Part shown: positions 1 through 52,262 of the stretch, in pieces
Position numbering within the stretch: the stretch's first letter is position 1
How the letters are laid out: each line of letters opens with the position of its first letter
NCBI GenBank assembly: GCA_012735575.1
Contig: JAAYGY010000050.1
Location: forward strand, 9,020 to 73,019
DNA from: Clostridiales bacterium
Lineage (GTDB): Bacteria > Bacillota > Clostridia > Caldicoprobacterales > UBA3941
Direction: 5' to 3'
Length of the DNA stretch: 64,000 nt
Translations under genes and position numbers: made by a program
The notes under the pieces: model-generated
What the model saw: the letters and a program-made list of their open reading frames with translations, nothing else
Told to the model about the DNA's origin: nothing
The model's database searches: none

Positions 1-38
1 AAAAGGTAAATGGAGACAAAAAGCACTTTCTGATAATA

Positions 39-73
39 CCCTTAACGTGTAGTACACGTTCAAGGGTTTTTTT
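39..73 (+). terminator. Rho-independent terminator of a transcript that starts upstream of the window
   Basis: Inverted repeat cccttaacgtg / cacgttcaaggg (39-49 / 55-66) followed directly by a T7 run. Confidence 0.7.
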
Positions 74-259
74 ATTATTTGGAAAAAGACTTTCATTTGT
101 ATTAAAAAAGATATAGAATATACCTATAAATTTCTATATTTTTTGTAACATATTCTATACATAACACGTCTAATATTATAGGGTTTACCAGGTGCTCAAT
201 ATATACACAACACATACAACTATACAATTAATTATAAAATGTGGGAAAGGAATAGGCAT

Positions 260-1183
260 ATGGAACTTTTAAAAATTCAAGGTTTAACCAAGATCATAAA
301 AAAGCGCAAAATACTGGACAATATCTCTTTGACCGTTAATTCCGGGGAGATTGTGGGTTTTCTCGGGCCTAATGGTGCAGGCAAAACCACCACTATTAAG
401 CTGATTATGGGGCTGTTTCATATCACTGAAGGTGAAATAAAAATATGTGGTCACGATATTGTTACGGATTTTGAAGCTGCCATGGCTAATGTAGGAGGAA
501 TCATAGAAAATCCTGATCTTTATAAAAGAATGACGGGTAGAGAAAATCTGGAGTATTTTGCTTCTATGCATGAAAATGTAGACAAGAAAAATATTGATGA
601 TATTGTGAAACTGGTAAAAATGTCAGAGCGCATCGATGATAAGGTCAAAACATATTCACTGGGTATGTGTCAGCGTGTAGGTATAGCACAAGCTCTTCTT
701 CATAATCCCCGTCTTTTGGTGTTAGACGAACCTACCAACGGGCTCGATCCTATTGGTATCAAGGAACTGCGGGATTTATTAAAACTTCTCGCCAAAGAGG
801 CAGGTGTAGGAGTATTTATCTCCAGCCACTTATTGTCTGAGATGGAGCTGATGTGCGATAGAATCTATATCATAGACGAAGGTGTTATTATTGGTGAGAA
901 GGCCATAAATGATAATGGAGAAGCTGAGGAAGAGTTAATATTCGAATATACCTTTATTACAGACAACAACTCTAAAACCTTTAATTATTTCAATGAACTG
1001 CAGACAAATTGTAGGATGGAAAACAGCGGGGTAATTGTTGTCATGAAACGTAGTGAGATGCCCAATTTAATAAGAAATCTTGTAGATCAAGGTATTGGCA
1101 TTTATGCTGTAAATGAGAAACACAGAACTCTTGAACAAGATTTTATATCTATAACTACAGGGTCAAAACATCAAATCCGATAA
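260..1183 (+). CDS. ABC transporter ATP-binding protein (ABC-2/bacitracin-type exporter ATPase)
   Basis: Walker A GPNGAGKTT, signature-like YSLGMCQR, Walker B LLVLDEP and H-loop SSHLL. The ATG at 260 has GAAAGGA 8 nt upstream. The track start at 239 lacks an RBS. Confidence 0.9.
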   Translation: MELLKIQGLTKIIKKRKILDNISLTVNSGEIVGFLGPNGAGKTTTIKLIMGLFHITEGEIKICGHDIVTDFEAAMANVGGIIENPDLYKRMTGRENLEYFASMHENVDKKNIDDIVKLVKMSERIDDKVKTYSLGMCQRVGIAQALLHNPRLLVLDEPTNGLDPIGIKELRDLLKLLAKEAGVGVFISSHLLSEMELMCDRIYIIDEGVIIGEKAINDNGEAEEELIFEYTFITDNNSKTFNYFNELQTNCRMENSGVIVVMKRSEMPNLIRNLVDQGIGIYAVNEKHRTLEQDFISITTGSKHQIR

Positions 1184-1215
1184 TAAAAATATTAATAGTT
1201 AGAGAGGATATTGCC

Positions 1216-3015
1216 ATGAGTTTTTTAAGACAAATAAAAGTTGAAATAAAAAGTATACTGAAATCAAGGTTTTTATTGATTATAGGTATATTGGTTATTG
1301 CCTCTAGTGTTTTGGTGCCGGTTATGAGTTTTTTTGTACAGAAACAAAGTACTGGGGGTGGCGGAGTTGTCCGACCTTTACCCATTGCTTCACCTGCTTA
1401 TAGTGTCGTGGATATAGGTATTGCCTATCCAGAAATGTCAGGCGAAGAACCAATTGTGGTAGAGGATATAACAATACTTCCTGACAACCCATTCTATTGG
1501 CAAATCAATGGATTAATGCATGAAAAGGAATCAATGGAACTGGACAAAGGACGTTTTTCTGAGATTGAAGTTTTAGATCTGGCACTTTCCTTGGTAGATG
1601 AAGAAATCAAATATTATGCTCGTTTTGCTCAGCATATAACAAAACATACCGATTACCGAATGGAGTTAGCCTGGATGGGAACCCAAACAATCTATGAAAA
1701 ATTTATCTACGAGCATAATGACGTACCAGAAGACAGGCTTTATGAGGCTGTATCCTATAAAATGGGCCTGGATCCTGATTCCTTTAAAGAAAAGTATATT
1801 AGTATTACTCCAGAGCAAAGACTGGCAGCTTTGGATAAACTGGAAGGCAACCTAAATAGCATATATAAAGTGGTAGAAGATAATGATTTTCCTCAATATA
1901 TTAATTTAAGAATAGAGCAGGAAAAGGACAGAATAGCAGACTTTGAGGAGCAGATTGCTATACATGAAGAATCTATAATCCAAAATCCTTCGCAGGAGGA
2001 AGGACTAAGTGTAGTGATAGAGGATTTGAAAAGAAACATAGAAATTATAGAGACCAATACTATTCCTATTTTGCAGCTAAGGCTGGAGAGAAACATTATC
2101 CCGGGAGAGGACACTTGGGAAAATCGTGCCCTTAATGAAATAGAAATGAACCGTAACCAGCTATTGTATACGGAAATTATAAGCGAAGAGGAATTTAATA
2201 AAGAAAGACACTATGTTATGCAATACGGTAGCTATGACAAATATGTAAGAGCTATACAGGCACAGATTGATGAGTACAATACAGCTATTATGATAGGTGA
2301 AAGGTCCTTGGATGAAGGAAAGCCGGATATGAGATTTGTTCCTGAAGGCTCAAGGAATAGGACAGTAGAATTCCTTAGTTACTCTATTTTTGTAGCCTTG
2401 TTTGCAGTGCTTTTAGGGGGTTGGTCTATAGCCAGTGAGTTTCAGCAGGGTACCATTAGGTTATTGATGATCCGCCCAAAAACCAGAACAAAAATATTAA
2501 TGGCTAAGTTTATTGGGGCTTTGATCCTTTCATTTGCTATTTATATATTAGGCAGCTTGCTAAATCTTATAAGCAACGGAGCATTGTTTGGGTTTTCCGA
2601 CTATGCCTATCCCAACTACACTATTTCTGGTGATATTAACTTCTTTGCCTATTATTTACCAAAGCTTCTGGCATGTACAGTATCCATTATATTTGCCTTC
2701 ACTGTTGCCTTTATGTTATCTGTGGTCATAAGAAATGTGGCTGTTGCCGTAGCTGTTCCAATAGCCTGCTTTATTGGCTGTAATATAGTGTTGGCGGCCT
2801 TTACCTATAGTGATGCAATGAATTGGGTGGCTTATACTCCTATACCCTTTGTTCAGATTTCCTCCTTTTTTACTAGGAATTCAATGGTAAGTTATATCAT
2901 TCAAAGGGGTATCCCTCTTAGTCTACCCTATGGTATAATGTTATTGTTGGTCTTGTCAGTCATATGTACTTTTGTTTCTATATTCAATTTCAAGAGAAGG
3001 GATATAACAGGTTAA
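1216..3015 (+). CDS. ABC-2 family permease with a large (about 370 aa) charged, coiled-coil-looking extracytoplasmic insert
   Basis: One N-terminal TM helix, a long hydrophilic E/K/I-rich segment, then 5-6 C-terminal TM helices. RBS AGAGAGGA. It starts 33 nt after the ATPase gene. Confidence 0.75.
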   Translation: MSFLRQIKVEIKSILKSRFLLIIGILVIASSVLVPVMSFFVQKQSTGGGGVVRPLPIASPAYSVVDIGIAYPEMSGEEPIVVEDITILPDNPFYWQINGLMHEKESMELDKGRFSEIEVLDLALSLVDEEIKYYARFAQHITKHTDYRMELAWMGTQTIYEKFIYEHNDVPEDRLYEAVSYKMGLDPDSFKEKYISITPEQRLAALDKLEGNLNSIYKVVEDNDFPQYINLRIEQEKDRIADFEEQIAIHEESIIQNPSQEEGLSVVIEDLKRNIEIIETNTIPILQLRLERNIIPGEDTWENRALNEIEMNRNQLLYTEIISEEEFNKERHYVMQYGSYDKYVRAIQAQIDEYNTAIMIGERSLDEGKPDMRFVPEGSRNRTVEFLSYSIFVALFAVLLGGWSIASEFQQGTIRLLMIRPKTRTKILMAKFIGALILSFAIYILGSLLNLISNGALFGFSDYAYPNYTISGDINFFAYYLPKLLACTVSIIFAFTVAFMLSVVIRNVAVAVAVPIACFIGCNIVLAAFTYSDAMNWVAYTPIPFVQISSFFTRNSMVSYIIQRGIPLSLPYGIMLLLVLSVICTFVSIFNFKRRDITG

Positions 3016-3028
3016 AAGGAGTAATTCC

Positions 3029-4825
3029 ATGGAAGGAAATAATAATTTTTTAGAAAACTACAAAAAAAAGTTAGATTTAAAATTTGAGCAAAAAACCGAC
3101 TTCGTTAAGCCAGATAATACTGATAGGGATATAATTACGCCCAAAAGTCCATCAAACAGGAGAAAAATCTGGATAAGTATTGTCAGTGGCGCTGTAGTTT
3201 TGGTGGCTATATTAATAGGTTTGATACTTTTCTTCAATAGAGGAGTAGAGGTTATCGATCTGACTGGATGGATAGAAAATGATGCCAGGCTTTGGGCTAA
3301 TGAAAATGGTCTTAAGCTTCAGATAGAACAGGAATATAATGACGACTTCGATGCCGGAAGGATAATTTCTCAAAGCGTGCCCAAAGGTACCAAGGTAAAA
3401 AAAGGGGAATTCATAAAGGTAGTAGTTTCCCTAGGTCATGACCTGTCTGTTACCTTACCCCTTCCAGACTTTATGTCCATGACCAGGGAGGAAATAGAAA
3501 CCTGGGCTGAGGAAAACTATATGGCCAGAGTACGTATAACTGCAGAATACAGCGATGAAGTTCCCGTAGGGCGTGTTATAAGGTTTGAGATTAATGATGA
3601 AACTGTAATTGATGAGGTAAACCGAAATACCCCTATATATATAGTGGTTTCAAAAGGACCTGAGGATGAATCGGTTTTAGAGGTTGTTGTGCCTAACTTT
3701 AAGGAAATGGCCATTGGAGAATCTTATATATTTGCCAATGAAAACGGTTTGGTACTCCAAATAGAAGAAGAGTATGATGATTTTGTGCCAGAGGGTGCAA
3801 TAATTTCTCAGAGCATCAAAGCTGAAGAAAAAGTTAAAAAGGGTACCGAGATTACCCTGGTGGTTTCCAAGGGCAAGATGATTACTGTTCCTGACTTTGC
3901 TGGATACTCCAAGGAAAGAGCTACTGCTGTGGCAGGGGAGCTGGGGATTCCTGTGACCATAAAAGAAAGATACTCCACGGCACCTCCCAATACCTTTATA
4001 TCTCAAAGCATTAAAGCAGGTACTGAGTATAAGAAAGGGGATATACTAGAGCTGACTTATTCTATCGATAATAAGATAGTATTACCCTCCTTTGTAGGTC
4101 AAACAAGAGATGCCATTGAACTTTGGGCAAAGGAGTTAAATGATCAGGGAGCCGGTATCTCAATAAAGGTTACCAATACAAAAAGCAATTCTCCAAAGGG
4201 TACTATTCTTCATCAGGATAAGGCCAATACAGTAATTGGCATAAAGGATACTATTAAAGTTACTGTATCCCAGGGCAAGGTGGTGTATGTTCCCGATTTC
4301 GTTGCACCGGCGGGTTCAGGTTACGATATTGCTATAACCAGAGATAAGGCTTTGGCCATGTGTGAAGAACTTAATATAGTGCCTATATTCCAAGAGGCTA
4401 ATAAATCCGGTAGATTGCCAGGTGAGATATGGCATCAAAGCATAGAGGCAGGAAAGGAGATAACCGAAGGCTCTACCATTGTACTAAAATATGTGCCTGC
4501 CAATGTAAAAGTCACAGTACCAAACTTTGTTGGCATGACAAAAGAGGAAATACTAAAAGGCAAACACAACAAAAATCTGGATATAAGATTTGTAGAAGGC
4601 GTAGAATATGTTGAGGGCTACGAAGGAAAGGTTTATGAACAATCCCTAAGTGCCAATACTAAGACTGCGGCTGGCAGCATTATAACTCTAACCATTGGCC
4701 CCAATCAATTTATTGATGAAATAGAAGGTATAGAGGATATAGAGAATATAGAAGATATAGAGGAAACACAAAAGGAAGAAGTATCAGAAGAAGGAAAAGA
4801 TGTAAATCAAGATAGCAAAAAATAA
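3029..4825 (+). CDS. Membrane-anchored PASTA-repeat protein (7 PASTA-like modules, no kinase or PBP domain)
   Basis: A 46-aa cytoplasmic tail and one TM helix (IWISIVSGAVVLVAILIGLILFF). Seven repeats of about 65-70 aa each start with a [VL]P[DNS]F-type motif (e.g. VPNFKEMAIGES, VPDFAGYSKERA, LPSFVGQTRDAI, VPNFVGMTKEEI) and end with ...VVSKG/VSQG/LTIG. The tail is acidic. It starts 14 nt after the permease stop. Confidence 0.8.
   Translation: MEGNNNFLENYKKKLDLKFEQKTDFVKPDNTDRDIITPKSPSNRRKIWISIVSGAVVLVAILIGLILFFNRGVEVIDLTGWIENDARLWANENGLKLQIEQEYNDDFDAGRIISQSVPKGTKVKKGEFIKVVVSLGHDLSVTLPLPDFMSMTREEIETWAEENYMARVRITAEYSDEVPVGRVIRFEINDETVIDEVNRNTPIYIVVSKGPEDESVLEVVVPNFKEMAIGESYIFANENGLVLQIEEEYDDFVPEGAIISQSIKAEEKVKKGTEITLVVSKGKMITVPDFAGYSKERATAVAGELGIPVTIKERYSTAPPNTFISQSIKAGTEYKKGDILELTYSIDNKIVLPSFVGQTRDAIELWAKELNDQGAGISIKVTNTKSNSPKGTILHQDKANTVIGIKDTIKVTVSQGKVVYVPDFVAPAGSGYDIAITRDKALAMCEELNIVPIFQEANKSGRLPGEIWHQSIEAGKEITEGSTIVLKYVPANVKVTVPNFVGMTKEEILKGKHNKNLDIRFVEGVEYVEGYEGKVYEQSLSANTKTAAGSIITLTIGPNQFIDEIEGIEDIENIEDIEETQKEEVSEEGKDVNQDSKK
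4718..4765 (+). repeat. In-frame 9-bp tandem repeat (ATAGARRAT x5) encoding IEGIEDIENIEDIEE in the PASTA protein tail
   Basis: Direct reading: gaa-ata-gaa-ggt-ata-gag-gat-ata-gag-aat-ata-gaa-gat-ata-gag-gaa. Confidence 0.85.
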
Positions 4826-4829
4826 CAAA

Positions 4830-4882
4830 AGCTAGGACAAGGGATATCTCTTCATAGAATATATACCCTGTCCTAGCTTTAT
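4830..4882 (+). terminator. Terminator-like long hairpin after the ABC/PASTA operon
   Basis: agctaggacaaggg (4830-4843) pairs with ccctgtcctagct (4866-4878). The following T tract is weak (ttta). Confidence 0.55.
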
Positions 4883-4954
4883 ATTGTGTTATTATATTAT
4901 TATATCTTATATAAAATTAATATGTATTAAATAGGTTTTGAAAGGGGAGTAGAA

Positions 4955-6424
4955 GTGGCAAGAATTTCTGTCAAAGGAGATCGCTTTGTTGATAATCAGG
5001 GCAGGCATGTTATACTTAGGGGCATTAATTTAGTACATAAGGGAAACTGGGAAAATGGTATAATAAACTACATACCCTCCTGGGACGAAAGAGTATTTAG
5101 CAATTTAAAAAAATGGGGATTTAACCTGGTTCGTCTAGGGATTATATGGGATGCTGTTGAACCTAGACCTGGTGAATATGATGAAAAATATTTGGACTGG
5201 GTAAATAGGATGCTGGATCTATGTGAAAAATATGGAATATATGCTTATTTGGATATGCATCAGGATTTATACAGTGTCCTTTATAGCGATGGGGCCCCTG
5301 AATGGGCTACAATTACAGATAGTCAACCCCATATAGAAGGGGATATTTGGAGCGACGCCTATATAATTAGTGATGCTGTTAAAAGATCCTTTGATAATTT
5401 TTGGAATAATACTCCAGCATCAGACGGAGTAGGTTTGCAGGATCATTATGTTAATATGTGGGTACATATTGCTAAACGGTTTGCAGGGCATCCTGCATTA
5501 ATAGGGTATGATTTTTTAAATGAACCATTTCCTGGGACCCAGGCCACTGCTATTTTTGAGGCCTTGGTATCATCTTTAAAGGAAGCACTCAGTCAGGCCA
5601 AGGGAACTCATTATGCCTTCGAAGAAGTAATGGAAATGCTATCCCATCCAGAGGGAAAAATAAAGATACTAGATTTTATAGAGGATAAAAAGATATACCA
5701 ATCAGTTGCAAAAGCAGTGGAGCCCTTAGTTGAAAAGTTTGATAAAGGTGCTTTGGACGGATTTTACCGGAAAATCTCACAAGCAGTGCGTACAGTTGAT
5801 AGAGATACCATAATAATGAGAGAAAACAGCTATTTTTCTAATATAGGGATTGAATGTAAGGCCCAGCCTATTGTTTATGAAAATGGTACAAGAGAACCCC
5901 AACAGGCCTTTTCCCCTCACGGTTATGATCTGGTAGTAGATACAGAAGGGGTTCAATGGGCTAGCAACAACCGGATAGATGTTATTTTTGACGCACATCG
6001 TCGTACACAGCAGCGCATGGGTGTACCTGTTATGGTGGGTGAATGGGGTGCTCATGGAGATTATTCAGAAGGCTTATATCATATTGAACATATACTTCAA
6101 ATTTTTGATAAATATATGTGGAGCAGTACTTACTGGTGCTTTTATGATGGATTTGAAAATACTCCCGTTCTAGGTGTCTTAAAAAGACCTTTTCCACAGG
6201 CTGTTTGTGGCCGAATATTACATTTTAGATACGATTATCAATCAAAGAGGTTCTATATGGAATGGGATGAGGAAAATGGGCATGCTCCAACCATTATCTA
6301 CTTACCACAAAAGGAGTTTGAGGTGGAGAATATAAAAGATTTTTCAGTGGAACGAATGGGCCAAAGCTCACTAGTGGTAATTGAACCTACTGGCAGAAAG
6401 CGAAGTATATCTATAAGCCTTTAG
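4955..6424 (+). CDS. Glycoside hydrolase family 5 protein (cellulase/endoglycoceramidase-like), apparently cytoplasmic
   Basis: GH5 hallmarks GFNLVRLGIIWDAVEP and acid/base motif FLNEPFPG, with a later GEWG nucleophile-region motif. No signal peptide. GTG start with RBS AAAGGGGA. Confidence 0.8.
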   Translation: MARISVKGDRFVDNQGRHVILRGINLVHKGNWENGIINYIPSWDERVFSNLKKWGFNLVRLGIIWDAVEPRPGEYDEKYLDWVNRMLDLCEKYGIYAYLDMHQDLYSVLYSDGAPEWATITDSQPHIEGDIWSDAYIISDAVKRSFDNFWNNTPASDGVGLQDHYVNMWVHIAKRFAGHPALIGYDFLNEPFPGTQATAIFEALVSSLKEALSQAKGTHYAFEEVMEMLSHPEGKIKILDFIEDKKIYQSVAKAVEPLVEKFDKGALDGFYRKISQAVRTVDRDTIIMRENSYFSNIGIECKAQPIVYENGTREPQQAFSPHGYDLVVDTEGVQWASNNRIDVIFDAHRRTQQRMGVPVMVGEWGAHGDYSEGLYHIEHILQIFDKYMWSSTYWCFYDGFENTPVLGVLKRPFPQAVCGRILHFRYDYQSKRFYMEWDEENGHAPTIIYLPQKEFEVENIKDFSVERMGQSSLVVIEPTGRKRSISISL

Positions 6425-6564
6425 ATTTGGGATTATAAAAGATTATTAGTTCATTTTATCGCTTATTCCAGATAATATATTTGAAAGTTATACTATTATT
6501 GATTATAATTAGTATGTGTATTATCACAAACCACAAATGACTAAAAGTGGAGGAGGATTTATAA

Positions 6565-7632
6565 ATGGTAGGAAATACATACCAGCTGGCTATTGTCGGC
6601 TTAGGTGGGATGGGGAATTGGCATCGAGAAATTATTGAAACCATCGATGGAATAGAAGTATGCGGCAGCTTCGATATCAAAGAAGAAAGACAGCAGTTTG
6701 CTAGAGACCATGGTATAACTCCTTATAACAGCTTTGAGGAACTGCTGGCAGATGAAAAAGTTGACATTGTTCTTTGTGCAACACCAAATGACTGCCACAA
6801 GGATATCGTTATTCGCTCACTGCGAGCTGGAAAACATGTAGTATGCGAAAAACCTGTAACTCTAAGTTCCAAGGATTTACAGGAAATGATAGATGTTGCG
6901 GAGGAAACAGGAAAGCTTTTTACCGTTCATCAGAATCGTCGTTGGGATGAAGATTTTCTAACAGTAAAGAAAATATACCAAGAAAATATGTTGGGTGATA
7001 TTTTCCGTATTGAATCCCGTGTTCATGGGTCCCGTGGAATACCAGGAGACTGGCGTCAGTTACCAGAACATGGTGGAGGCATGGTTCTGGATTGGGGTGT
7101 TCACATTTTAGATCAGGCATTAATGATGATTCCTTATAAGGTTAAATCCGTTTATGCCACCCTTACCCATGTAACAAATGAATTAGTAGATGATGGTTTC
7201 ACAGTTGTATTGACTTTCGAAAATGGATTGGAGTATTTACTGGAAGTGGGAACCAGCAACTTTATTAATCTGCCTCGTTGGTATGTTCTAGGGCAGAATG
7301 GAACTGCTGTTGTTAGAGACTGGGATATATCAGGAGAAATTGTACGAATTACCGACTGGAGTAAAAACGATGCAGTGCCTATTCGAACAGCGGCTGGTTT
7401 AACCAAGACCATGGCGCCTCGAACTGAGGATACTATAAAGACAGAGCCCCTACCCATTGTTAGAAGCGATATACGCGATTACTACAAGAATGTAATGGCT
7501 GCTATCGAAGGAAAAGAAGAGATTATAGTAAAATTACCAGAAGTAATGAGGGTAATGAAATTAATGGAGGCAATTTTTGAAGCTGCTGAAAAGGAACAAA
7601 TTATTCCTTTTGAATATGATTTAAACAATTAA
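6565..7632 (+). CDS. Gfo/Idh/MocA family NAD(P)-dependent oxidoreductase
   Basis: N-terminal Rossmann motif AIVGLGGMGNWH, an EKP motif (VVCEKPV) and a family-typical C-terminal alpha/beta domain. Confidence 0.85.
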   Translation: MVGNTYQLAIVGLGGMGNWHREIIETIDGIEVCGSFDIKEERQQFARDHGITPYNSFEELLADEKVDIVLCATPNDCHKDIVIRSLRAGKHVVCEKPVTLSSKDLQEMIDVAEETGKLFTVHQNRRWDEDFLTVKKIYQENMLGDIFRIESRVHGSRGIPGDWRQLPEHGGGMVLDWGVHILDQALMMIPYKVKSVYATLTHVTNELVDDGFTVVLTFENGLEYLLEVGTSNFINLPRWYVLGQNGTAVVRDWDISGEIVRITDWSKNDAVPIRTAAGLTKTMAPRTEDTIKTEPLPIVRSDIRDYYKNVMAAIEGKEEIIVKLPEVMRVMKLMEAIFEAAEKEQIIPFEYDLNN

Positions 7633-7646
7633 GTTACCCAAATACA

Positions 7647-7690
7647 TTGACCGCCTAATATCATCATAAATTAGGCGGTCAATATATTTT
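7647..7690. terminator. Bidirectional terminator between convergent genes
   Basis: ttgaccgcctaat / attaggcggtcaa 13-bp stem, flanked by A/T runs on both sides. Confidence 0.75.
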
Positions 7691-7698
7691 AAGCATGT

Positions 7699-8949
7699 TT
7701 ACAGGCTGTATACTTTTCCTATGAAAAGAATTGAATCAGTTTTAAGGTCTGCAATTATAAAGACAAAGGGACGGTCTGCAGAAAAGATTGTGGGTTCTAA
7801 AGCGCTTGTTACCATCTCTACCACTGTTGCTGCGGCTGCCTCACTACCTTTTTCATTTACTTCTATTACAGCCTTGTGGAGTACGTCATATATAGACAGG
7901 TCATTTCTTATACCAGAAAAATCTGCCATGTCTGAGAATGCTTCCTCCATACCCAGGTCGATTAAGCAGTTCTTTAGGCTTTTTATGCCGTATTCAAGTT
8001 TGAAACGGGGTATTTTCAATATTACATCGTTTGTTTGTTCTATACTACTCTTGATATCATCCCATTTCTCCTTATCTAGATTTTCAACAAACTCATTTAT
8101 AGGAGTTTCTGATTCCGGCAAGATGCAGTACATGGCTAAATCACCCTTGCCATAGGGTAGTCTAACAACTTGAAAATCATTGCCCTGCCCATATTCCACT
8201 TCTCCATTTAAGGTCATCATCATTACATCCTGAGTGCTGCCATCACCGCCATGAAATGGGGCATTATAGGTATTCTTTTCATCGAATTTCTTGGTCCATT
8301 CTCCTTTAAAATATATGGCGTTTATAAGATACATAAGAGTTTCTGGTGCTATGGGCGGTTCTATCATTTCCTTTATTTTTTGTTTGGTAGCTTGGGATAT
8401 CCAGTCATTGATTGTATGGGCAGCACTGTCCTTAGAAAAATCCAGCTCCTCTATAAAAGCATAATAGTATTCTTTATTTACTGAAAGGAAATTTTCTAAA
8501 ATAGGTTCGCCATCTCTTATCCAGATTGAATTGGCCATATTTAGTTCAACCTTCTTGTCTAGCCTGTTTAAATACTGCAGTATATTTTTATAATTTTCAT
8601 TCAGAGTTTCCAAATCCATATTAGTGTATTCCAGAGTTTTTGCCATAACTTCCTTGGTAGTACTTTGAGCACCCTGGTAAGTCATGGCAAGGGCAGTGGA
8701 TATACTTATAGGGGATATAATTATGTTTTTATCTTTATCCTCACTATTTATCTGTCTAAAGATTTTAAAGGCAAATTCAGTATTCCTTGAAACAAAATCT
8801 GAATCTACTTTATTTGTTGTAATATTATTTGCAGACTTGGTATTGGGTATATTATCTGATATATTATCTGATGACAGATCAAGAGAACATCCTATAACCA
8901 AGCCGAGGGATATGGTTATACACAATAGAAGACATAGACACACTTTCAT
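7699..8949 (-). CDS. Serpin family protein, predicted lipoprotein, inhibitory-type reactive-centre loop
   Basis: Serpin length and C-terminal signature NEKGSEAAAATVVEMVTSALEPTIFSADRPFVFII (hinge E-K-G-S-E-A-A-A-A). Signal peptide with lipobox LVIG-C. The ATG at 8949 is preceded by GGAGG (ggaggatttaatATG). The track start at 9000 has no RBS. Confidence 0.85.
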   Translation of the reverse strand: MKVCLCLLLCITISLGLVIGCSLDLSSDNISDNIPNTKSANNITTNKVDSDFVSRNTEFAFKIFRQINSEDKDKNIIISPISISTALAMTYQGAQSTTKEVMAKTLEYTNMDLETLNENYKNILQYLNRLDKKVELNMANSIWIRDGEPILENFLSVNKEYYYAFIEELDFSKDSAAHTINDWISQATKQKIKEMIEPPIAPETLMYLINAIYFKGEWTKKFDEKNTYNAPFHGGDGSTQDVMMMTLNGEVEYGQGNDFQVVRLPYGKGDLAMYCILPESETPINEFVENLDKEKWDDIKSSIEQTNDVILKIPRFKLEYGIKSLKNCLIDLGMEEAFSDMADFSGIRNDLSIYDVLHKAVIEVNEKGSEAAAATVVEMVTSALEPTIFSADRPFVFIIADLKTDSILFIGKVYSL

Positions 8950-9066
8950 ATTAAATCCTCCTGGAATGAATTCTACATCTATGCAGACGTATCTATGCAT
9001 GGTTTTGTTTCAGTCACATATGTTTGACTTCTCTAGAAGTTTTGTTTTAGCTTACAAAAATTTCTA

Positions 9067-9094
9067 TTGACCTTAGTGATAAAAATGATATAAT
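9067..9094 (+). promoter_or_regulatory. Strong sigma-A-type promoter (TTGACC-16 nt-TGaTATAAT)
   Basis: ttgacc at 9067-9072, tataat at 9089-9094, and TG one base upstream of the -10 hexamer. Confidence 0.65.
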
Positions 9095-9100
9095 AATTAT

Positions 9101-9362
9101 AGAAAAGAGATCAAGATTTTCTGAGATATCCGTGTCGCTTTTATTTTGAACCTACATTGTAAATAAGGGAGTCCAAATCTAAAGGACTGATATCAGGCCT
9201 TTGTAAGTCCAATATGGCAGGGGAAGATAGATGCCTTTATGAGGACACCCACCTATCCGAGAGATAGGTGTCAAAATAGGGGCAACGGTATCTTGGATAA
9301 TGTATTAGAAATTTGATTATAAGACCATAAGTGCGTACAGACAACACTTATGGTCTTTTTTG
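9101..9362 (+). ncRNA. Unassigned structured RNA (about 260 nt) bounded by a promoter and an intrinsic terminator
   Basis: No ORF. Long-range closing helix: atcaagattttct (about 9110-9122) with agaaatttgat (about 9308-9320), and agata..ccgt (9123-9134) with acggtatct (9284-9292). Internal hairpins: cacctat-ccgagag-ataggtg and ggca..tgcc. Terminator: aagaccataagtg...cacttatggtctt followed by T6 (9321-9362). Confidence 0.5.
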
Positions 9363-42185: not shown

Positions 42186-43646
42186 ATGAAACAATTAAAA
42201 TCACTACTAGTTTTTATACTTATACTACTGATACTTAGTTTGACTGCTTGCCTGGCCTTGCCTGTTGATAAGTGGAAAGTAAACAATGTAAGAAATGAAA
42301 GGGAAGAAAACCAGGAAATCCTGGATAATAATATGGAAGAAATTGCTGATGAACAGCAGCAAGTTCAGGAAAATGATATAGATGATGAATATATAGATGA
42401 GGGGTTCGTTGAAGAGGAATATAATATTGAAAAAAACAATGATGATATTGAGGCAGAGGAGATTAAAGGTGATAGGGAGGAATGGGAAGAGGAAATAGAA
42501 GATGAAGAGGATGATAGTAAAGAGATAAACGGAACTGAAAATCAGCAGCAAGCAGAACAAGGACTTGAACTTACACAGGTTTTCAATACCAAAATGCCAG
42601 AGAATATAGCTGTTGAACTTAAGTACGATAAATATTTGATGGTATATGATTATTTGTTAATTTTGAAGAATGCCAATATTCGCCAATTACCTTCATTAGA
42701 AGGTGAGATAATCGGCAAGATAGGTGCCATGGAAAGAATAGGTTTAGTTGCAGAAGTTAAGGGAGATTATGTAGAGAAATGGGATGAGGATTCCTGGTAT
42801 CAGGTTGAGTGGGAGGAAAATGGAGATATTAAAACTGGCTTTATACTTTCTAGTTTAGCTGAAGTAAGACAGTTTCAGTTTGACAAGATGGTAAAGAGTA
42901 TTGAAGTACTTGAACAGTCACTTTTGTTTGGTGAGTTGGCTCATATAAGCAATTATAAGAATGTAAACGGTATTCCGCCAAAAATAAATGGTAGTACATG
43001 GGATTCTTATGGCTATAGAAGAAGTCAAAGTGCTGCAGGTTATGAGAAGCCTGACAAATCTTCTAAATTTAGATATATTCCCGATGGTATGCTGGTACAG
43101 GTATTAGAAAAAGAAAAGGGCTTCACTAAGGTAAAAGTTGTAGGATTTGAAGGGGAATATTGGGTTTTAGATAAATATATAAATACAAAAAAACCTTTAA
43201 CTAATCTTAATAAAATAATAATAGTAGATCGTAAAAACCAAAATCAAGGAGTGCTTGAGTTTATAGACGGACAATGGACACTAATATCTTATGGTCTTTC
43301 TACAACGGGAGTAAAGGGTACCTATTCTTTAGAAACCCCATTGGGATATTATATGGCCATTGAAAAGAGAGATAAATTCTTATACTTTGAAGATGGAACA
43401 ACAAAGATTGCTGGTTATGCACCTTATGCAATACGATTTTCAGGCGGTGGGTATATACATGGTGTTCCCGTTAACTATAAGATAAAAGATGATAATAAGA
43501 TGATAGATCCGGGTATGATAGAATACCTCCATTCTATAGGAACAACTCCCCGTTCTCATATGTGTGTAAGAAATTACACCAGTCATGCAAAGTTTTTACA
43601 CAGCTGGGCGGATATTGGAGAGACAGCACTCGTTGTTATAGAATAG
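42186..43646 (+). CDS. Lipoprotein L,D-transpeptidase (YkuD domain) with acidic linker and two SH3b-like domains
   Basis: Lipobox LTA-C and an E/D-rich stretch of about 100 aa. Two SH3-like segments. YkuD core IIIVDRKNQ...TPLGYY...YIHGVP...TPRSHMCVRN with the catalytic Cys. Confidence 0.8.
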   Translation: MKQLKSLLVFILILLILSLTACLALPVDKWKVNNVRNEREENQEILDNNMEEIADEQQQVQENDIDDEYIDEGFVEEEYNIEKNNDDIEAEEIKGDREEWEEEIEDEEDDSKEINGTENQQQAEQGLELTQVFNTKMPENIAVELKYDKYLMVYDYLLILKNANIRQLPSLEGEIIGKIGAMERIGLVAEVKGDYVEKWDEDSWYQVEWEENGDIKTGFILSSLAEVRQFQFDKMVKSIEVLEQSLLFGELAHISNYKNVNGIPPKINGSTWDSYGYRRSQSAAGYEKPDKSSKFRYIPDGMLVQVLEKEKGFTKVKVVGFEGEYWVLDKYINTKKPLTNLNKIIIVDRKNQNQGVLEFIDGQWTLISYGLSTTGVKGTYSLETPLGYYMAIEKRDKFLYFEDGTTKIAGYAPYAIRFSGGGYIHGVPVNYKIKDDNKMIDPGMIEYLHSIGTTPRSHMCVRNYTSHAKFLHSWADIGETALVVIE

Positions 43647-46949: not shown

Positions 46950-48338
46950 ATGGCTACACCAGTTATTATGCCCCGACAGGGATTAAGTGTGGAAAGTTGT
47001 ATTATAACAAAATGGCATAAGCAAAAAGGCGACAGGGTTGAACCTGGAGATGTTTTATTTACCTATGAGACAGACAAGGCTACTTTTGAAGAAGAGGCAC
47101 AGCATTCAGGGATACTATTAGAAATCTTTTTTGAAGAGGGAGATGATGTCCCTGTTTTGACAAATGTATGCGTTATTGGCGAAGAAGGCGATGATGTATC
47201 TCAATATTCCCCTCATAAAACCGAAGATGTCAAAGATGACGAAACGGTTGAAGAACCTTTACAGTCAGGGTCTCAGGCAGAGGTAGAGGAAGAATCAGAC
47301 ACACCTACAATAGTCCCACAAGAACAGGATAATGAGAAAGGCATTATAAAGATATCTCCCAGAGCCAGAAATCTGGCAAAAAGGGCAGGAGTTAATATTG
47401 AGCATGCTATTCCTACGGGTCCTGAAGGACGCATAATAGAAAGGGATATTATTGATCTAATGGAAAAAGGCAAGGTATTTACTCCTGCTGCAATGGATCA
47501 ATACAAGCCAGGATTTTCTGATTTGCCAGCTGTAGGAACAGGACTGGGTGGACGAGTAACTACCTATGATCTGGAGATGGCCCCTAAAGAAGAAAGGGCA
47601 ACTGTTGACTCTGCTGAAGAAAAAGTGAAAGCTGACATCAGTTCAGACTTTGAGGAAGTTAAACTAACCAATATTCGCAAGGTAATAGCCAGGACAATGC
47701 ATCAGTCATTGGCTAATACTGCCCAACTAACCCTTAATTCTTCCTTCGATGCTACAGATATTTTGAATTTCCGGGCTAAACTAAAAGGCAAGGGTCAAAG
47801 CCTAGGCTTGGACATAATAACCATTAATGATATTATTCTGTATGCTGTTTCCCGAACTCTTTTAAATCATAAAGAGCTGAACGCTCATTTCCTTGAGGAT
47901 TCAATGCGTTTATATAATACAGTAAACCTGGGTGTTGCTGTAGATACTCCTAGAGGACTTATGGTACCTACCATAATCAATGCTGAAAAGAAATCATTAC
48001 TGGAAATATCTAAAGAGGTTAAAGAGTTAGCTTCAGCCTGTCAGTCAGGCACCATTAACCCAGACTTACTTACCAATGGAACCTTTACTGTTACCAATCT
48101 GGGAGTTTTGGGCGTAGAGTCCTTTACACCAGTACTTAACCCGCCTCAAACTGGTATCTTGGGGGTTGGCAGTATTGTCCATAGGATAAGAGAAGTCCAT
48201 GGAGAGATTGAAAATTATCCTGCCATGGGTCTGTCCTTAACCTTTGATCATAGAGCAATAGATGGTGCACCTGCAGCAAGATTCCTTAAGGAATTAGCTG
48301 AAAACCTTGAAAACTTCAGCCTGCTGTTAGCTAAATAG
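46950..48338 (+). CDS. 2-oxo-acid dehydrogenase E2 (dihydrolipoamide acyltransferase)
   Basis: Lipoyl domain with ETDKA, E3-binding domain ISPRARNLAKRAGVNI and catalytic DHRAIDGA. Confidence 0.9.
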   Translation: MATPVIMPRQGLSVESCIITKWHKQKGDRVEPGDVLFTYETDKATFEEEAQHSGILLEIFFEEGDDVPVLTNVCVIGEEGDDVSQYSPHKTEDVKDDETVEEPLQSGSQAEVEEESDTPTIVPQEQDNEKGIIKISPRARNLAKRAGVNIEHAIPTGPEGRIIERDIIDLMEKGKVFTPAAMDQYKPGFSDLPAVGTGLGGRVTTYDLEMAPKEERATVDSAEEKVKADISSDFEEVKLTNIRKVIARTMHQSLANTAQLTLNSSFDATDILNFRAKLKGKGQSLGLDIITINDIILYAVSRTLLNHKELNAHFLEDSMRLYNTVNLGVAVDTPRGLMVPTIINAEKKSLLEISKEVKELASACQSGTINPDLLTNGTFTVTNLGVLGVESFTPVLNPPQTGILGVGSIVHRIREVHGEIENYPAMGLSLTFDHRAIDGAPAARFLKELAENLENFSLLLAK

Positions 48339-48349
48339 GAGGGATTTTA

Positions 48350-49714
48350 ATGAGTTATGACTTAATCGTTATAGGTGGTGGTCCGGCAGGATATTTAGGA
48401 GCATTAAGAGCTGCCGGTGAGGGCCTTAATACTTTATTGATTGAAGGAAGAAGAGTAGGAGGAGTTTGCCTTAATGAAGGATGTATTCCTTCCAAAACCT
48501 TGCTTCATTCCGCAAAAATTTATGATTATACCAGATTTAGCGATAAATATGGCGTAACAGCCAAAGAGGTAGAATATGACCATGCAAAGGTCATAAAACG
48601 AAAGAATAAAGTGGTAAGAACCTTGGTAGCGGGTATAAATTCCCAGTTAAAAGCTGCTAAAGTTAACCTGGTAACGGGATATGGACGCATTGAAGGCAGA
48701 AATTCTCAAGGGTATGTTGTAAGAGTTGGTGATGATACCTATACTGGTAGCAGGCTCTTGATTGCTACTGGTTCTCAGCCCATTATTCCTCCTATACCTG
48801 GAGTAAAAGAGGGAATAGAAAAAGGAATTGTGCTAACAAACCGGGAGATTCTTGACCTGGAAGAGGTACCAAAATCCCTTGTTATTGTTGGCGGAGGTGT
48901 AATCGGGCTAGAAATGGCTTCCTACTATAATTCTGCAGGTAGTCAAGTTACCGTTATAGAGATGCTAGACCATATTGGGGGAGAAACAGACAGGGAAATA
49001 TCCCAGATCCTCCTTAAAAATTATAAGGCCAAGGGCATAGATTTTAAACTGGAAGCCAGAGTAGTATCCATAGATGGAAATAAGGTTGTATATAAATCCC
49101 AGGGGCAGGAAACTGTCTTAGAAACCGATAAGATATTGATGAGCGTTGGAAGAAGGCCGGTTACAGAAGACTTAGGTCTAGAAACCATAGGAGTTGAGGT
49201 AGAGAATGGCAGAATAAAGACTGACGAGACTGGACTAACCAATATACCCAATGTATATGCTGCCGGAGATGTAAATGGTAAGTCACTCCTTGCTCATACT
49301 GCCTATAGAGAAGCTGAGGTATGCGTTAATAATATGGTGGGGCGCAGGGATATAATGAGATATAACGCCATTCCATCGGTAATCTATACAAATCCAGAGG
49401 TTGCTTCAGTAGGTGAAACCGAGGAAACCGCCAAGAAAAAAGGGTTGGATGTAGAAACTGTCAAACTGTCCATGCGCTATAGTGGAAGATATGTGGCAGA
49501 GAATGAAGGCGGAGATGGAATTTGTAAGTTGGTGATAGATAAAAAGTACAACAGGTTATTAGGTGTCCATATGATTGGAAACCCGGCTTCCGAAATAATT
49601 TATGGTGCTGCTCTTATGATAGAGACACAAATGCGAATCAAGGATATAAAGGAACTGGTATTTCCTCATCCCACCGTAGCGGAGATTATCCGTGAGGGTA
49701 TATTTCAGTTGTAA
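48350..49714 (+). CDS. lpdA: Dihydrolipoyl dehydrogenase (E3)
   Basis: FAD motif GGGPAGY, redox disulfide GGVCLNEGCIPSK, and HPT in the C-terminal interface domain. Confidence 0.9.
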   Translation: MSYDLIVIGGGPAGYLGALRAAGEGLNTLLIEGRRVGGVCLNEGCIPSKTLLHSAKIYDYTRFSDKYGVTAKEVEYDHAKVIKRKNKVVRTLVAGINSQLKAAKVNLVTGYGRIEGRNSQGYVVRVGDDTYTGSRLLIATGSQPIIPPIPGVKEGIEKGIVLTNREILDLEEVPKSLVIVGGGVIGLEMASYYNSAGSQVTVIEMLDHIGGETDREISQILLKNYKAKGIDFKLEARVVSIDGNKVVYKSQGQETVLETDKILMSVGRRPVTEDLGLETIGVEVENGRIKTDETGLTNIPNVYAAGDVNGKSLLAHTAYREAEVCVNNMVGRRDIMRYNAIPSVIYTNPEVASVGETEETAKKKGLDVETVKLSMRYSGRYVAENEGGDGICKLVIDKKYNRLLGVHMIGNPASEIIYGAALMIETQMRIKDIKELVFPHPTVAEIIREGIFQL

Positions 49715-49790: not shown

Positions 49791-52262
49791 ATGCCTAAAA
49801 ACCAATTTATCAATCCAAACCAGGTACGCAAGAGTGGTTGGATTAAATTTAATGATATTCCTGTAAATCAATATCAAAAGACTATTGAAGAGGAGAAAGA
49901 AAACTATTCTAAAGAGGACTTCTTAAGAATCTATCACCATATGGCCATTATTCGTGAATTTGAAACCATGATAGACCTTGTTAAAAAGACCGGGCAATAT
50001 AATGGGGTTGAGTATAATCATCCTGGTCCCGCTCACCTGTCCATAGGTCAGGAGGCATCAGCTGTAGGGCAGGCATATCTATTGGATGAAGATGATTTTA
50101 TATTTGGTTCACATCGAAGCCACGGAGAAGTGTTAGCCAAAGGTCTATCAGTCATCCATAAGATGGACAATGAAAGGCTGCTAAAAATCATGGAAGAGTT
50201 CTTTGATGGAACTGTCCTTAGAATAGTAGAGGAAAACAACAAAAACAGTAAAGATGTAAAGGAACTGGCCATTGATTTTCTAATATATGGAACCTTGGCC
50301 GAGATATTTGCAAGGGAGACTGGATTTAACAAGGGTCTTGGAGGTTCAATGCACGTATTCTTTACACCCTTTGGCATTTATCCTAATAACGCTATTGTTG
50401 GCGGCTCTGCAGATATTGCCATGGGATCCGCACTTTATAAAAAGGTAAACCAAAAAGATGGTATAGTTATAGCTAACATTGGTGACGCATCTATGGGCTG
50501 TGGACCAGTATGGGAGGCAATGAACATGGCAGCCATGGACCAGTTCAAGCTGCTGTGGGATGAGAGTCACAGAGGTGGATTGCCAATAATATTCAATTTC
50601 TTCAACAATCAATATGGCATGGGCGGCCAGACCAGCGGAGAAACCATGGGTTATGGCATTCTAGCCAGGGTTGGAGCAGGTATAAATTCAGAACAGATGC
50701 ATGCTGAAAGAGTGGACGGCTTTAATCCTTTAGCTGTAATCGATGCTATTAGAAGAAAGAAAGAGGTTCTAGAGAACAATCAAGGTCCAGTATTACTGGA
50801 TACCCTGACCTATAGATTCTCTGGGCATTCACCTTCCGATGCTTCCAGTTATCGCACAAAAGAGGAAGTAGAAGCCTGGATGGAGCATGATCCTTTAGAA
50901 GTCTTCAAGAAAGACTTAATTGAGGCTGGTGTCGCAAGTCAAGAGGAATTTGACCATATTTGGGAAAATACTAAAGACCTTATTTTTAGAAACTTTAAGA
51001 TATCCATAGATGAGAACATTTCTCCTTATATGGATTTAAAGAAAAATCCCAATATAATATCAGATCTAATGTTCTCCAATGAGAGAATAGAAAAGATGGA
51101 GGACAGAGAACCCGATGTATTGATTCCTAAAGAGGAGAATCCCAGGGTTCAACAGATAAAACGAAAGGTAAGAACTGCCTACAAGGATGGAAAACCAGTT
51201 CCAAAGACCAGGGTATTGCAGTTAAGAGATGCTATTTTCGAGGCTCTATTAGATAAATTCTATACAGATCCTACCTTGGTAGCCTACGGTGAGGAAAACA
51301 GGGATTGGGGTGGAGCCTTTGCTGTATACAGAGGCTTAACCGAATCTTTACCCTATCATAGATTGTTCAATGCACCTATATCGGAGGCCGCAATTGTGGG
51401 ATCAGCCGTTGGATATGGACTTTCAGGAGGTCGAGCTGTTGTAGAACTTATGTACTGTGACTTTTTAGGTCGTGCAGGTGATGAGGTTTTCAATCAGCTA
51501 TCCAAGTGGCAGGCTATGAGTGCAGGAATACTGAAAATGCCTGTTGTACTAAGAGTGTCCGTAGGTTCAAAATACGGTGCCCAGCATTCCCAGGACTGGA
51601 CATCCTTATGCGCCCATATACCTGGCCTAAAGGTAGTTTTTCCTGCTACACCATATGATGCTAAGGGATTGATGAATAGCGCATTGATGGGAACAGATCC
51701 TGTAGTTTTCTTTGAGAGTCAAAGGCTCTATGATATTGGTGAGATGTTTAACTCAGAAGGTGTACCAGAAGGGTATTATGAAGTGCCCATTGGCGAACCG
51801 GATATCAAGAGACAGGGTAGCGATATAACCATATTAACCATTGGCGCCACCTTATATAGAGCATTAGAAGCTGCCGATATATTAGAAAAAGAATATGGTT
51901 TAAGTGCAGAAGTTATTGATGCTAGAACCTTGGTACCCTTTAACTATGAGAAGGTATTGGAGTCTGTCAAGAAAACAGGTAGAATTCTGCTGGCCAGCGA
52001 TGCATGTGAAAGGGGTTCCTATCTGAATGACGTGGCACGGAATATAAGTGAGTTGGCCTTCGACTATCTTGATGCACCGCCAGTTGTTTTAGGAGCAAAG
52101 AATTGGATTACTCCGGCTTTTGAACTGGAAGAGTATTTCTTCCCACAACCCGACTGGTTTATTGACATAATACATGAAAGAATTTTACCTTTGAAGGGCC
52201 ATGTAGTTAAAAATAATTTCACCAAAAATGAACAGATCCGTTGTAACAGACTGGGAGTATAG
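49791..52262 (+). CDS. Fused E1 alpha/beta thiamine-diphosphate-dependent 2-oxo-acid dehydrogenase component
   Basis: Alpha part: GQEA, HRSHG, TPP motif GDASMGCG...NNQYGMG and [10 protein letters not shown]. Beta part begins near residue 480: [32 protein letters not shown]. One continuous 823-codon frame. Confidence 0.85.

Follow-up and report, generated by a model that had tools for sequence, protein, structure and literature searches.

What does an array of PASTA domains do when it is encoded behind an ATP-binding cassette (ABC) transporter? PASTA domains are understood almost wholly as inputs of Ser/Thr kinases or as appendages of penicillin-binding proteins (PBPs). A stretch of 64,000 nucleotides (nt) from a Clostridiales bacterium of the order Caldicoprobacterales (contig JAAYGY010000050.1 of assembly GCA_012735575.1, positions 9,020 to 73,019), referred to below as the window, carries near its beginning a unit of three genes that encode an ABC ATPase, an ABC-2 permease with a large ectodomain and a single-pass membrane protein with seven PASTA repeats. 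The analysis of this unit suggests that the three genes specify one envelope machine, in which the PASTA protein would be a dedicated accessory subunit tied to peptidoglycan or lipid II. A probability of about 0.45 is assigned to this reading.

The three open reading frames (ORFs), as read in the window, are co-directional on the forward strand (239-1183, 1216-3015 and 3029-4825), and the order of their products is ATPase, permease, PASTA protein. The spacers between them measure 32 and 13 nt. The first-pass annotation of this DNA had described the same close co-directional packing, which stands, with gaps of 33 and 14 nt, which do not. Across the related loci the spacers are of about 13-30 nt, a distance that fits co-translation. 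Public annotations place the start of the ATPase at the ATG at position 260, giving a product of 307 amino acids (aa); the longest ORF begins at 239, and ATG 260 is probably the true start. A terminator-like hairpin is found on each side of the unit (Table 1). Judged by its sequence, the upstream hairpin is predicted to terminate the preceding transcription unit and the downstream one to close the three-gene unit. Both were found by eye. Scans for promoter and terminator patterns missed them and gave nothing informative; the upstream hairpin was overlooked because one of its arms is bulged. An Rfam scan of positions 1-5200 of the window returned no match.

Evidence for a link between the three genes is provided by their synteny. 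Loci from genomes and from metagenomes were pooled for this count, and six-frame ORFs were scored with profiles of the families. Loci of the close clade were counted if they had a full-length permease of 255 bits or more, followed by no less than 400 nt of sequence, which left 105 loci; some loci are present in both collections, so that the synteny counts are partly non-independent. The PASTA gene lies immediately downstream of the permease gene in 103 of the 105. In a 104th locus (L126) the N-terminal motifs of the PASTA protein are visible before the contig ends, and the one true exception (L059) has another ABC ATPase as its next gene. The order ATPase-permease-PASTA is kept among loci whose PASTA proteins share 50-84% identity and whose flanking genes differ. 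Clustering of the flanking ORFs revealed no conserved neighbour of the three-gene unit, the best flanking family being present in 10 of about 80 loci. The synteny in related genomes that the first-pass annotation had proposed as a check is thus amply confirmed, with unrelated flanks: the order of the three genes is kept much more often than chance would allow, and their coupling is near-obligate within the clade.

Several individual loci can be described here. In the exception, L059 (316-3042), the second ABC ATPase gene lies about 230 nt after the permease gene, and L132, which has a partial permease, is similar. The metagenome-assembled genome (MAG) to which L059 belongs, bin112, holds a second copy, L066, and the unit may be tandem or duplicated there. 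L122, another locus with a partial permease, is also devoid of the PASTA gene. A long GC-rich inverted repeat (gggcgggagtaagcccaacgcccacaactt … aagttgtgggcgttgggggcaagccgcccgccc) is located at 1590-1830 of this locus, directly 3' of the permease gene, and could be a mobile or recombination scar explaining the missing PASTA gene. Finally, the locus L075 (= L116) of an Oscillospiraceae MAG encodes, at 3257-9161, an ATPase, two paralogous permeases with large ectodomains (636 and 677 aa) and a PASTA protein. The presence of two paralogous permeases fits a dimeric permease and implies that the permease of this locus is a heterodimer.

The PASTA protein had been called an orphan in the first-pass annotation. 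This description has to be abandoned, since the protein belongs to a conserved family with several hundred members in uncultured Clostridia. For the PASTA protein and for the permease alike, well over 100 full-length homologues were listed, at about 50-85% identity. All of them bear generic names and originate from metagenomes or from MAGs that carry labels such as Clostridiales, Caldicoprobacterales and Christensenellales. With one genome per GTDB species, relatives of the permease were found at 204 stretches, and the best 80 of the 204 are all in MAGs. Three carriers are labelled Atribacteria, Kiritimatiellae and Burkholderiales (L008, L021 and L055, respectively); these labels look like binning contamination or mislabelling because the distribution is otherwise strictly restricted to Clostridia.

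The picture changes outside the close clade. The architecture is retained by permeases that score less than 255 bits, with only about 24% identity in the ectodomain, and the PASTA gene is present in 0 of the 21 loci that encode them. These sister loci are organized as ATPase-permease or ATPase-permease-permease operons, in which no recurring alternative third gene was seen on inspection. The transporter with its ectodomain consequently appears to be the older core, and the PASTA protein an accessory that became fixed in one large clade.

The PASTA protein itself gives a clear domain structure. Pfam PASTA (PF03793) matches it in seven stretches, at 226.4 bits against a cutoff of 23.2 (E 2.4e-68), and a hidden Markov model built from the repeats of the family also finds seven. 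No kinase, Transpeptidase or PBP_dimer family of Pfam was matched in the 598 residues. Hydropathy and alignment place a cytoplasmic segment of about 46 aa before a single transmembrane (TM) helix, which is followed by the repeats and an acidic tail. All this agrees with the first-pass annotation, which had proposed a short cytoplasmic tail, one TM helix and seven PASTA repeats with neither a kinase nor a transpeptidase domain. Two known classes of PASTA proteins were considered and rejected. The model of the PASTA Ser/Thr kinases (NF033483) reaches 283 bits against a cutoff of 450, through the PASTA part only and with no Pkinase match, and a class B PBP of the PBP2x/SpoVD type is incompatible with the missing Transpeptidase and PBP_dimer matches. 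The nearest solved sequences are those of the PASTA region of Staphylococcus aureus Stk1 (3M9G and 3PY9, E 2e-15), followed weakly by Mycobacterium tuberculosis PknB. By sequence, the repeats are therefore PASTA domains of the kinase type whose kinase was lost or never present. The homologues P0001-P0120 are all PASTA-only.

The number of repeats is remarkably constant, being seven in 91 of 101 full-length homologues, six in seven of them, eight in one and eleven in one; a short ORF (L147), also among the 101, gave a single repeat. The eleven repeats belong to P0010 (859 aa) and the eight to P0054 (658 aa), and the distal repeat is apparently missing from the seven members with six. The pairwise identity of the repeats is 21-48%, PASTA1 and PASTA3 being the closest pair. 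Eighteen positions are invariant in PASTA2, against two in the distal PASTA7. Judged by these alignments, the repeats are old and mutually distinct, each of them being conserved as an orthologous unit of its own. The cytoplasmic segment contains two short motifs, characterized in an alignment of 35 homologues. F7 and Y11 are invariant in the first (M..NN.FL..YKKK), F25 and P28 are nearly invariant in the second ((Y/F)E.KS.F.KP), and in most homologues the two are set apart by a linker whose length varies strongly.

The permease is of a familiar type in its membrane part. Among the Pfam families, ABC2_membrane_2 (PF12679) fits it best, with 68.9 bits for a cutoff of 27.2 (E 5.5e-19) and a match limited to aa 335-597, and PF12730 is matched at 38.6 bits against 27. 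Weak matches to ABC2_membrane_3 occur in some homologues. PF26999 is given in the precomputed annotations of some permeases (P0121-P0124, others, and a protein identical to that of the window). Hydropathy and an AlphaFold2 model of the full protein (pLDDT 82.5) agree on a first TM helix at about aa 18-43, an extracytoplasmic segment of about 340 residues and five further TM segments. A Foldseek search of the PDB with this model returned PmtD at the top, and PmtD, NosY, ABCG and TarG with a probability of 1.00 and weak E-values (6e-3 and above); ABCG2/ABCG25, TarG and ABCA7 were ranked behind PmtD. All these matches run through the membrane domain only. The hydropathy, the model and the Foldseek matches thus concur in a six-TM topology and in the type V fold. 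In a comparison of the family profile with the sequences of the PDB, NosY was the sole solved relative (E 1.6e-3). The model therefore describes an ordinary six-TM ABC-2 permease, apart from the ectodomain inserted in extracellular loop 1. PmtD itself was rejected as an identity for the permease (15.5 bits against a cutoff of 220).

The type V fold of the membrane domain is shared with PmtCD, the ABCG proteins, TarGH, Wzm-Wzt and the ABCA proteins, and the ectodomains of the latter also sit in extracellular loop 1, at a position matching the insertion observed here. These exporters are not known to have a PASTA partner, and the ectodomain of the present permease is without a match in the PDB. 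The succession of one TM helix, a large ectodomain and five TM helices is likewise found in YhgE/Pip and EsaA/YueB, from which the permease differs by its dedicated ATPase and by its best Pfam family. This candidate was set aside, no structure of the Pip/EsaA type being present among the 50 Foldseek matches shown for the full or the ectodomain model.

The ectodomain deserves a closer description. The first-pass annotation had seen in it a giant coiled coil of about 370 aa. The segment is indeed helical and rich in Glu and Ile, but its length is about 340 aa, and the notion of a plain coiled coil has to be given up. After a disordered and variable linker (Table 1), the segment forms an all-alpha domain with a single small beta-hairpin (aa 80-87 of the full protein), modelled alone by AlphaFold2 with a pLDDT of 92.6 and a pTM of 0.82. 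Its longest helices (225-256, 258-292 and 340-367) have 24-35 residues. Because it is strongly conserved and confidently modelled, and because its longest helices are no longer than this, the model points to a folded domain and not to a low-complexity coiled coil. Four motifs are conserved: DNPFYW; NPSQEE, which forms the turn joining the two longest helices; IPxLxYRLExNIxPGxDxW; and KPDM, which immediately precedes TM2. The invariant positions include P92, W95, D146, Y147, P258, E261, R289 and L290, as well as P296, W301, N303, P370, D371 and M372. No structural neighbour of the ectodomain model was found in the PDB with Foldseek, the best E-value being 0.8. A phmmer search of 1.84 billion cluster representatives with its sequence retrieved 88 proteins only, and all matches of at least 500 aa (539-674 aa) share the architecture of the permease. 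By these sequence searches the ectodomain is confined to this permease family.

One part of the ectodomain separates the two kinds of loci. Representatives were put into clades by a score threshold learned from the loci, and the occupancy of each alignment column was compared. The beta-hairpin and DNPFYW element (aa 76-105) is conserved in the PASTA-linked clade, where it is occupied at 0.99-1.0, and is missing for the most part in the PASTA-less clade (0.39-0.72). Based on this difference in the alignment, the element is a candidate docking site for the PASTA subunit.

A further indication of contacts between the three products was obtained from their evolutionary rates. Pairwise divergences were compared over 72 non-identical triplets using the Spearman coefficient. 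The divergence of the N-terminal motifs of the PASTA protein follows that of the ATPase (rho 0.72) more closely than those of the membrane domain (0.59) and of the ectodomain (0.51). With the membrane domain controlled, PASTA2 and PASTA6 follow the ectodomain with partial rho of 0.51 and 0.45, while in the opposite direction the partial values drop to 0.20 and -0.04. These differences held when 45 taxa were drawn at random 300 times. The pattern is suggestive of a subunit in contact with the ATPase on the cytoplasmic side and with the ectodomain on the outer side.

On the basis of these observations, the following machine can be proposed. Its core is a type V (ABC-2) transporter with two copies each of the ATPase and the permease, and every permease copy bears a helical ectodomain of about 300 aa. 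The PASTA protein would be a stoichiometric single-pass accessory subunit, acquired in one large clade of Clostridia. Its N-terminal peptide motifs would touch the ATPase in the cytoplasm, and its seven-repeat array would extend into the cell wall, the membrane-proximal and middle repeats, chiefly PASTA2 and PASTA6, touching the permease ectodomain, with the beta-hairpin and DNPFYW element as the candidate site. The PASTA domains of kinases of the PknB/PrkC/Stk1 type are reported to bind un-crosslinked stem peptides or lipid II. By analogy, the array may bind un-crosslinked stem peptides of peptidoglycan or lipid II, and this binding would position or gate the transporter's ATP cycle where the wall is being synthesized. 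The cargoes of solved type V exporters are amphipathic peptides (PmtCD), lipids and sterols (ABCA, ABCG) or lipid-linked glycopolymers (TarGH, Wzm-Wzt), which makes an envelope amphiphile or a lipid-linked precursor the natural guess for a cargo. The machine might also transmit force instead of moving a cargo.

Several points weigh against this proposal. All carriers are uncultured MAGs. A transporter of the same type functions in sister clades that are devoid of the PASTA gene, so that the core activity does not depend on the PASTA protein. The covariation described above could be produced by evolutionary rates shared within a cellular compartment. In the PASTA protein, conservation of the TM helix is low (0.45), which speaks against docking through a specific helix-helix interface. 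Lastly, some PASTA domains do not bind muropeptides, and ligand binding by the present repeats is assumed from other PASTA families.

The first competing explanation to be weighed is mechanotransmission, of the kind known from NosDFY or FtsEX, in which the ATP cycle would transport no substrate but would move the ectodomain and the PASTA array and thereby activate or position an extracellular partner, for instance a hydrolase or a synthase of peptidoglycan. It draws on the membrane domain, as NosY is its closest solved relative by sequence profile and NosFY ranks with the top structural matches; NosDFY, an ABC-2 complex, acts through an extracytoplasmic partner that docks on it. The dominant feature of the ectodomain, a long hairpin of two helices (225-256 and 258-292) joined by an invariant turn motif, would suit such a role, and so would the absence of any conserved regulator or cargo-biosynthesis gene in the neighbourhood of about 80 loci. 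The same loci, however, show no hydrolase or other effector gene linked to the unit, and PmtCD, a genuine exporter, fits the membrane domain equally well. The two models differ from the present system in other respects. NosDFY(L) (PDB 7O0Y, 7QBA and 7ZNQ) resembles it by the ABC-2/type V fold and by an operon that adds an extracytoplasmic component. This component is the beta-helix protein NosD, of which no counterpart exists here, whereas the partner in the window is a membrane-anchored PASTA array; moreover, the permease bears a helical ectodomain of 300 aa that distinguishes it from NosY, and the context of copper and N2O reductase is missing. An identification as NosDFY was rejected on the remoteness of the similarity to NosY, the PASTA nature of the third gene and the absence of nos genes nearby. 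With FtsEX and its partners PcsB, EnvC and CwlO/SweCD, the system shares the concept of an ATPase cycle relayed to peptidoglycan through an ectodomain and a helical element. FtsX, nevertheless, is a type VII protein with four TM helices and a Porter-type ectodomain; the present permease, with six TM helices and the ABC-2 fold, is not FtsX-like, has no FtsX match in Pfam and has no hydrolase gene linked to it, and FtsEX was discarded as an identity. Taken as a whole, mechanotransmission is considered unlikely.

In a second explanation the PASTA protein would be independent of the transporter, with which it would have no more than a transcript in common, acting either as a wall-binding scaffold or as the separate sensor of a cytoplasmic Hanks kinase or phosphatase whose gene lies elsewhere. 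The kinase-type repeats, closest to those of Stk1 and matched by NF033483 in four stretches, are in agreement with a separate sensor. The cytoplasmic motifs might just as well be bound by a division protein, a phosphatase or a soluble kinase, and the transporter family runs without a PASTA protein in the sister clades. The resemblance to the kinases PknB, PrkC, Stk1/StkP and IreK is indeed that of a single-pass protein with an extracellular array of repeats. It does not extend to the cytoplasmic part, which is reduced to the two short motifs with no kinase domain, nor to the number of repeats, usually three or four in the kinases, and the output would reach an ABC transporter rather than phosphorylation. 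An independent PASTA protein is above all difficult to reconcile with a near-obligate synteny across divergent genomes in which the other neighbours are unrelated; in the loci examined, the PASTA gene is never detached from the transporter. It also leaves aside that the N-terminal motifs track the ATPase, and PASTA2 and PASTA6 the ectodomain. Finally, no Hanks kinase was detected within the 64-kb window by tblastn, using as query the kinase domain of M. tuberculosis PknB. This explanation is judged rather improbable.

The ATPase bears on a third explanation. Its translation displays a Walker A (GPNGAGKTT), a signature (YSLGM), a Walker B (LLVLDEPT) and an SSHLL motif. With its ABC_tran match and H-loop it is a member of the ABC transporter ATPases, and by sequence and Pfam its catalytic motifs are intact. 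A C-terminal domain of about 85 aa follows. The clade-specific positions of the ATPase concentrate partly in the final 25 residues or so, and were given little weight because such a motif is common in ABC-2 ATPases. The orthologues share 65-90% identity across the loci. All the best NCBIfam matches fall below their respective cutoffs, and the corresponding identities were rejected: the lantibiotic-protection ABC (TIGR03740) at 225.3 bits against 309.75, GldA (TIGR03522) at 209 against 402.6, DrrA (TIGR01188) at 195 against 312 and PmtC (NF047568) at 163 against 375. A pump of the LanFEG/Bcr type protecting the cell from antimicrobial peptides, the example given in the first-pass annotation, whose PASTA array would shield lipid II or present the lipid II-bound peptide, is suggested by the rank of these matches (the lantibiotic-protection subfamily first, then GldA, DrrA and the PmtC/PmtA exporters of phenol-soluble modulins, among others), by the signature YSLGM, which we take to be typical of that subfamily, and by the reported binding of lipid II to the PASTA domains of S. 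aureus PknB, but is very doubtful given the shortfall of the ATPase, a permease with no match of the LanE/G type and a 300-aa ectodomain foreign to such pumps, the absence of a two-component system or biosynthetic cluster conserved near about 80 loci, and an ATPase conservation and a variety of chromosomal contexts across an order-level clade that look housekeeping.

The accessory-subunit reading may then be placed among what is known. Each of the parts falls into a known family (PASTA, ABC_tran and ABC2_membrane_2). What appears to be new is a PASTA array as the extracytoplasmic accessory of an ABC-2 machine, together with an ectodomain that has no solved relative. The first-pass annotation knew of no characterised precedent, and the literature searched, which covers few subscription journals, yielded no account of an ABC-2 transporter with a PASTA-only protein as its partner. 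A stronger proposal can be formulated, namely that the unit represents a previously unrecognised class of Gram-positive envelope machines, in which a seven-PASTA arm would couple the state of peptidoglycan or lipid II to an ATPase with no phosphorylation involved; it would amount to a PknB-like sensor of the wall that acts on transport, or to an FtsEX-like transmitter of force assembled from unrelated components. In this full form the proposal is regarded as unlikely. A conserved seven-PASTA protein that has no kinase and is genetically tied to an ABC transporter would reveal a third output of PASTA sensing, in which a membrane machine is controlled or targeted directly. What the array contributes can be gauged against the PASTA-less sister clades, a natural control, and the ectodomain, confidently predicted and lacking a Foldseek match among solved structures, is a good structural target. 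The carriers, relatives of the Caldicoprobacterales and Christensenellales, are abundant and mostly uncultured inhabitants of anaerobic digesters, and hardly anything has been described of their envelope biology.

Table 1. Features of the three-gene unit and of the PASTA-bearing PBP of the window. Conservation is the majority-residue conservation of the region.
Feature	Position	Strand	Basis and remarks	Conservation
Terminator-like hairpin	39-73	+	12/13-nt arms, 3-nt loop, T run; read from sequence	
ABC ATPase, 307 aa	260-1183	+	Pfam ABC_tran (PF00005), 116.4 bits, E 2e-33	
ABC-2 (type V fold) permease, 599 aa	1216-3015	+	TM1, ectodomain in extracellular loop 1, 5 TM segments	
Gly/Pro-rich disordered linker after TM1, aa 44-75	1345-1440	+	pLDDT <50; low alignment occupancy; variable within family	
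All-alpha family-specific ectodomain, aa 76-378	1441-2349	+	AlphaFold2 model of the ectodomain alone, alignment	
Beta-hairpin and DNPFYW element, aa 76-105	1441-1530	+	Alignment occupancy; P92 and W95 invariant	
Single-pass PASTA protein without kinase, 598 aa	3029-4825	+	Pfam PASTA	
Two cytoplasmic N-terminal motifs	3029-3118	+	Alignment; conserved	0.64
Linker after the motifs				0.30
Single TM helix, about aa 47-69	3167-3235	+	Hydropathy; weakly conserved	0.45
Seven PASTA repeats, aa 73-557	3245-4699	+	Pfam, alignment	
PASTA1				0.65
PASTA2	3449-3661	+	Most conserved repeat	0.77
PASTA3				0.75
PASTA4				0.71
PASTA5				0.74
PASTA6	4277-4501	+	Repeat	0.72
PASTA7				0.59
Acidic variable C-terminal tail	4700-4822	+	Alignment; Pro/Thr-rich in other members	0.28
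Terminator-like imperfect hairpin	4830-4885	+	13-bp stem, about 22-nt loop, T-rich tail; read from sequence	
Class B PBP, 2 PASTA repeats, transpeptidase and PBP dimerisation domains	56850-59051		Inside dcw cluster; Pfam	

The remainder of the window contains other genes of interest. The PBP listed in Table 1 had been cited by the first-pass annotation as a normal example of a PASTA protein, and its domains bear this out. It belongs to a dcw cluster (55372-63221) in which Pfam confirms mraW, a DivIC-like gene, the class B PBP and a Mur ligase; the murF- and mraY-like ORFs that come after the Mur ligase were assigned from their position only. An L,D-transpeptidase (YkuD) with an SH3 domain is encoded at 42186-43646 (+). 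Three genes lie between the PASTA gene and rpsD, encoding a GH5 glycosidase (4955-6424), a Gfo/Idh/MocA oxidoreductase (6565-7632) and a full-length bacterial serpin (7699-9000, minus strand; Pfam Serpin, E 1.4e-119) with a lipoprotein-like signal peptide (…LGLVIGC). This trio looks inserted, because in the related locus L001 rpsD comes immediately after the PASTA gene. An ORF of 479 aa at 21206-22645 (+) matches no Pfam family at an E-value of 1e-5 or better. Finally, a 2-oxoacid dehydrogenase of 823 aa in which the E1 alpha and beta parts are fused (49791-52262, +) adjoins the genes of E2 (46950-48338) and E3 (48350-49714).

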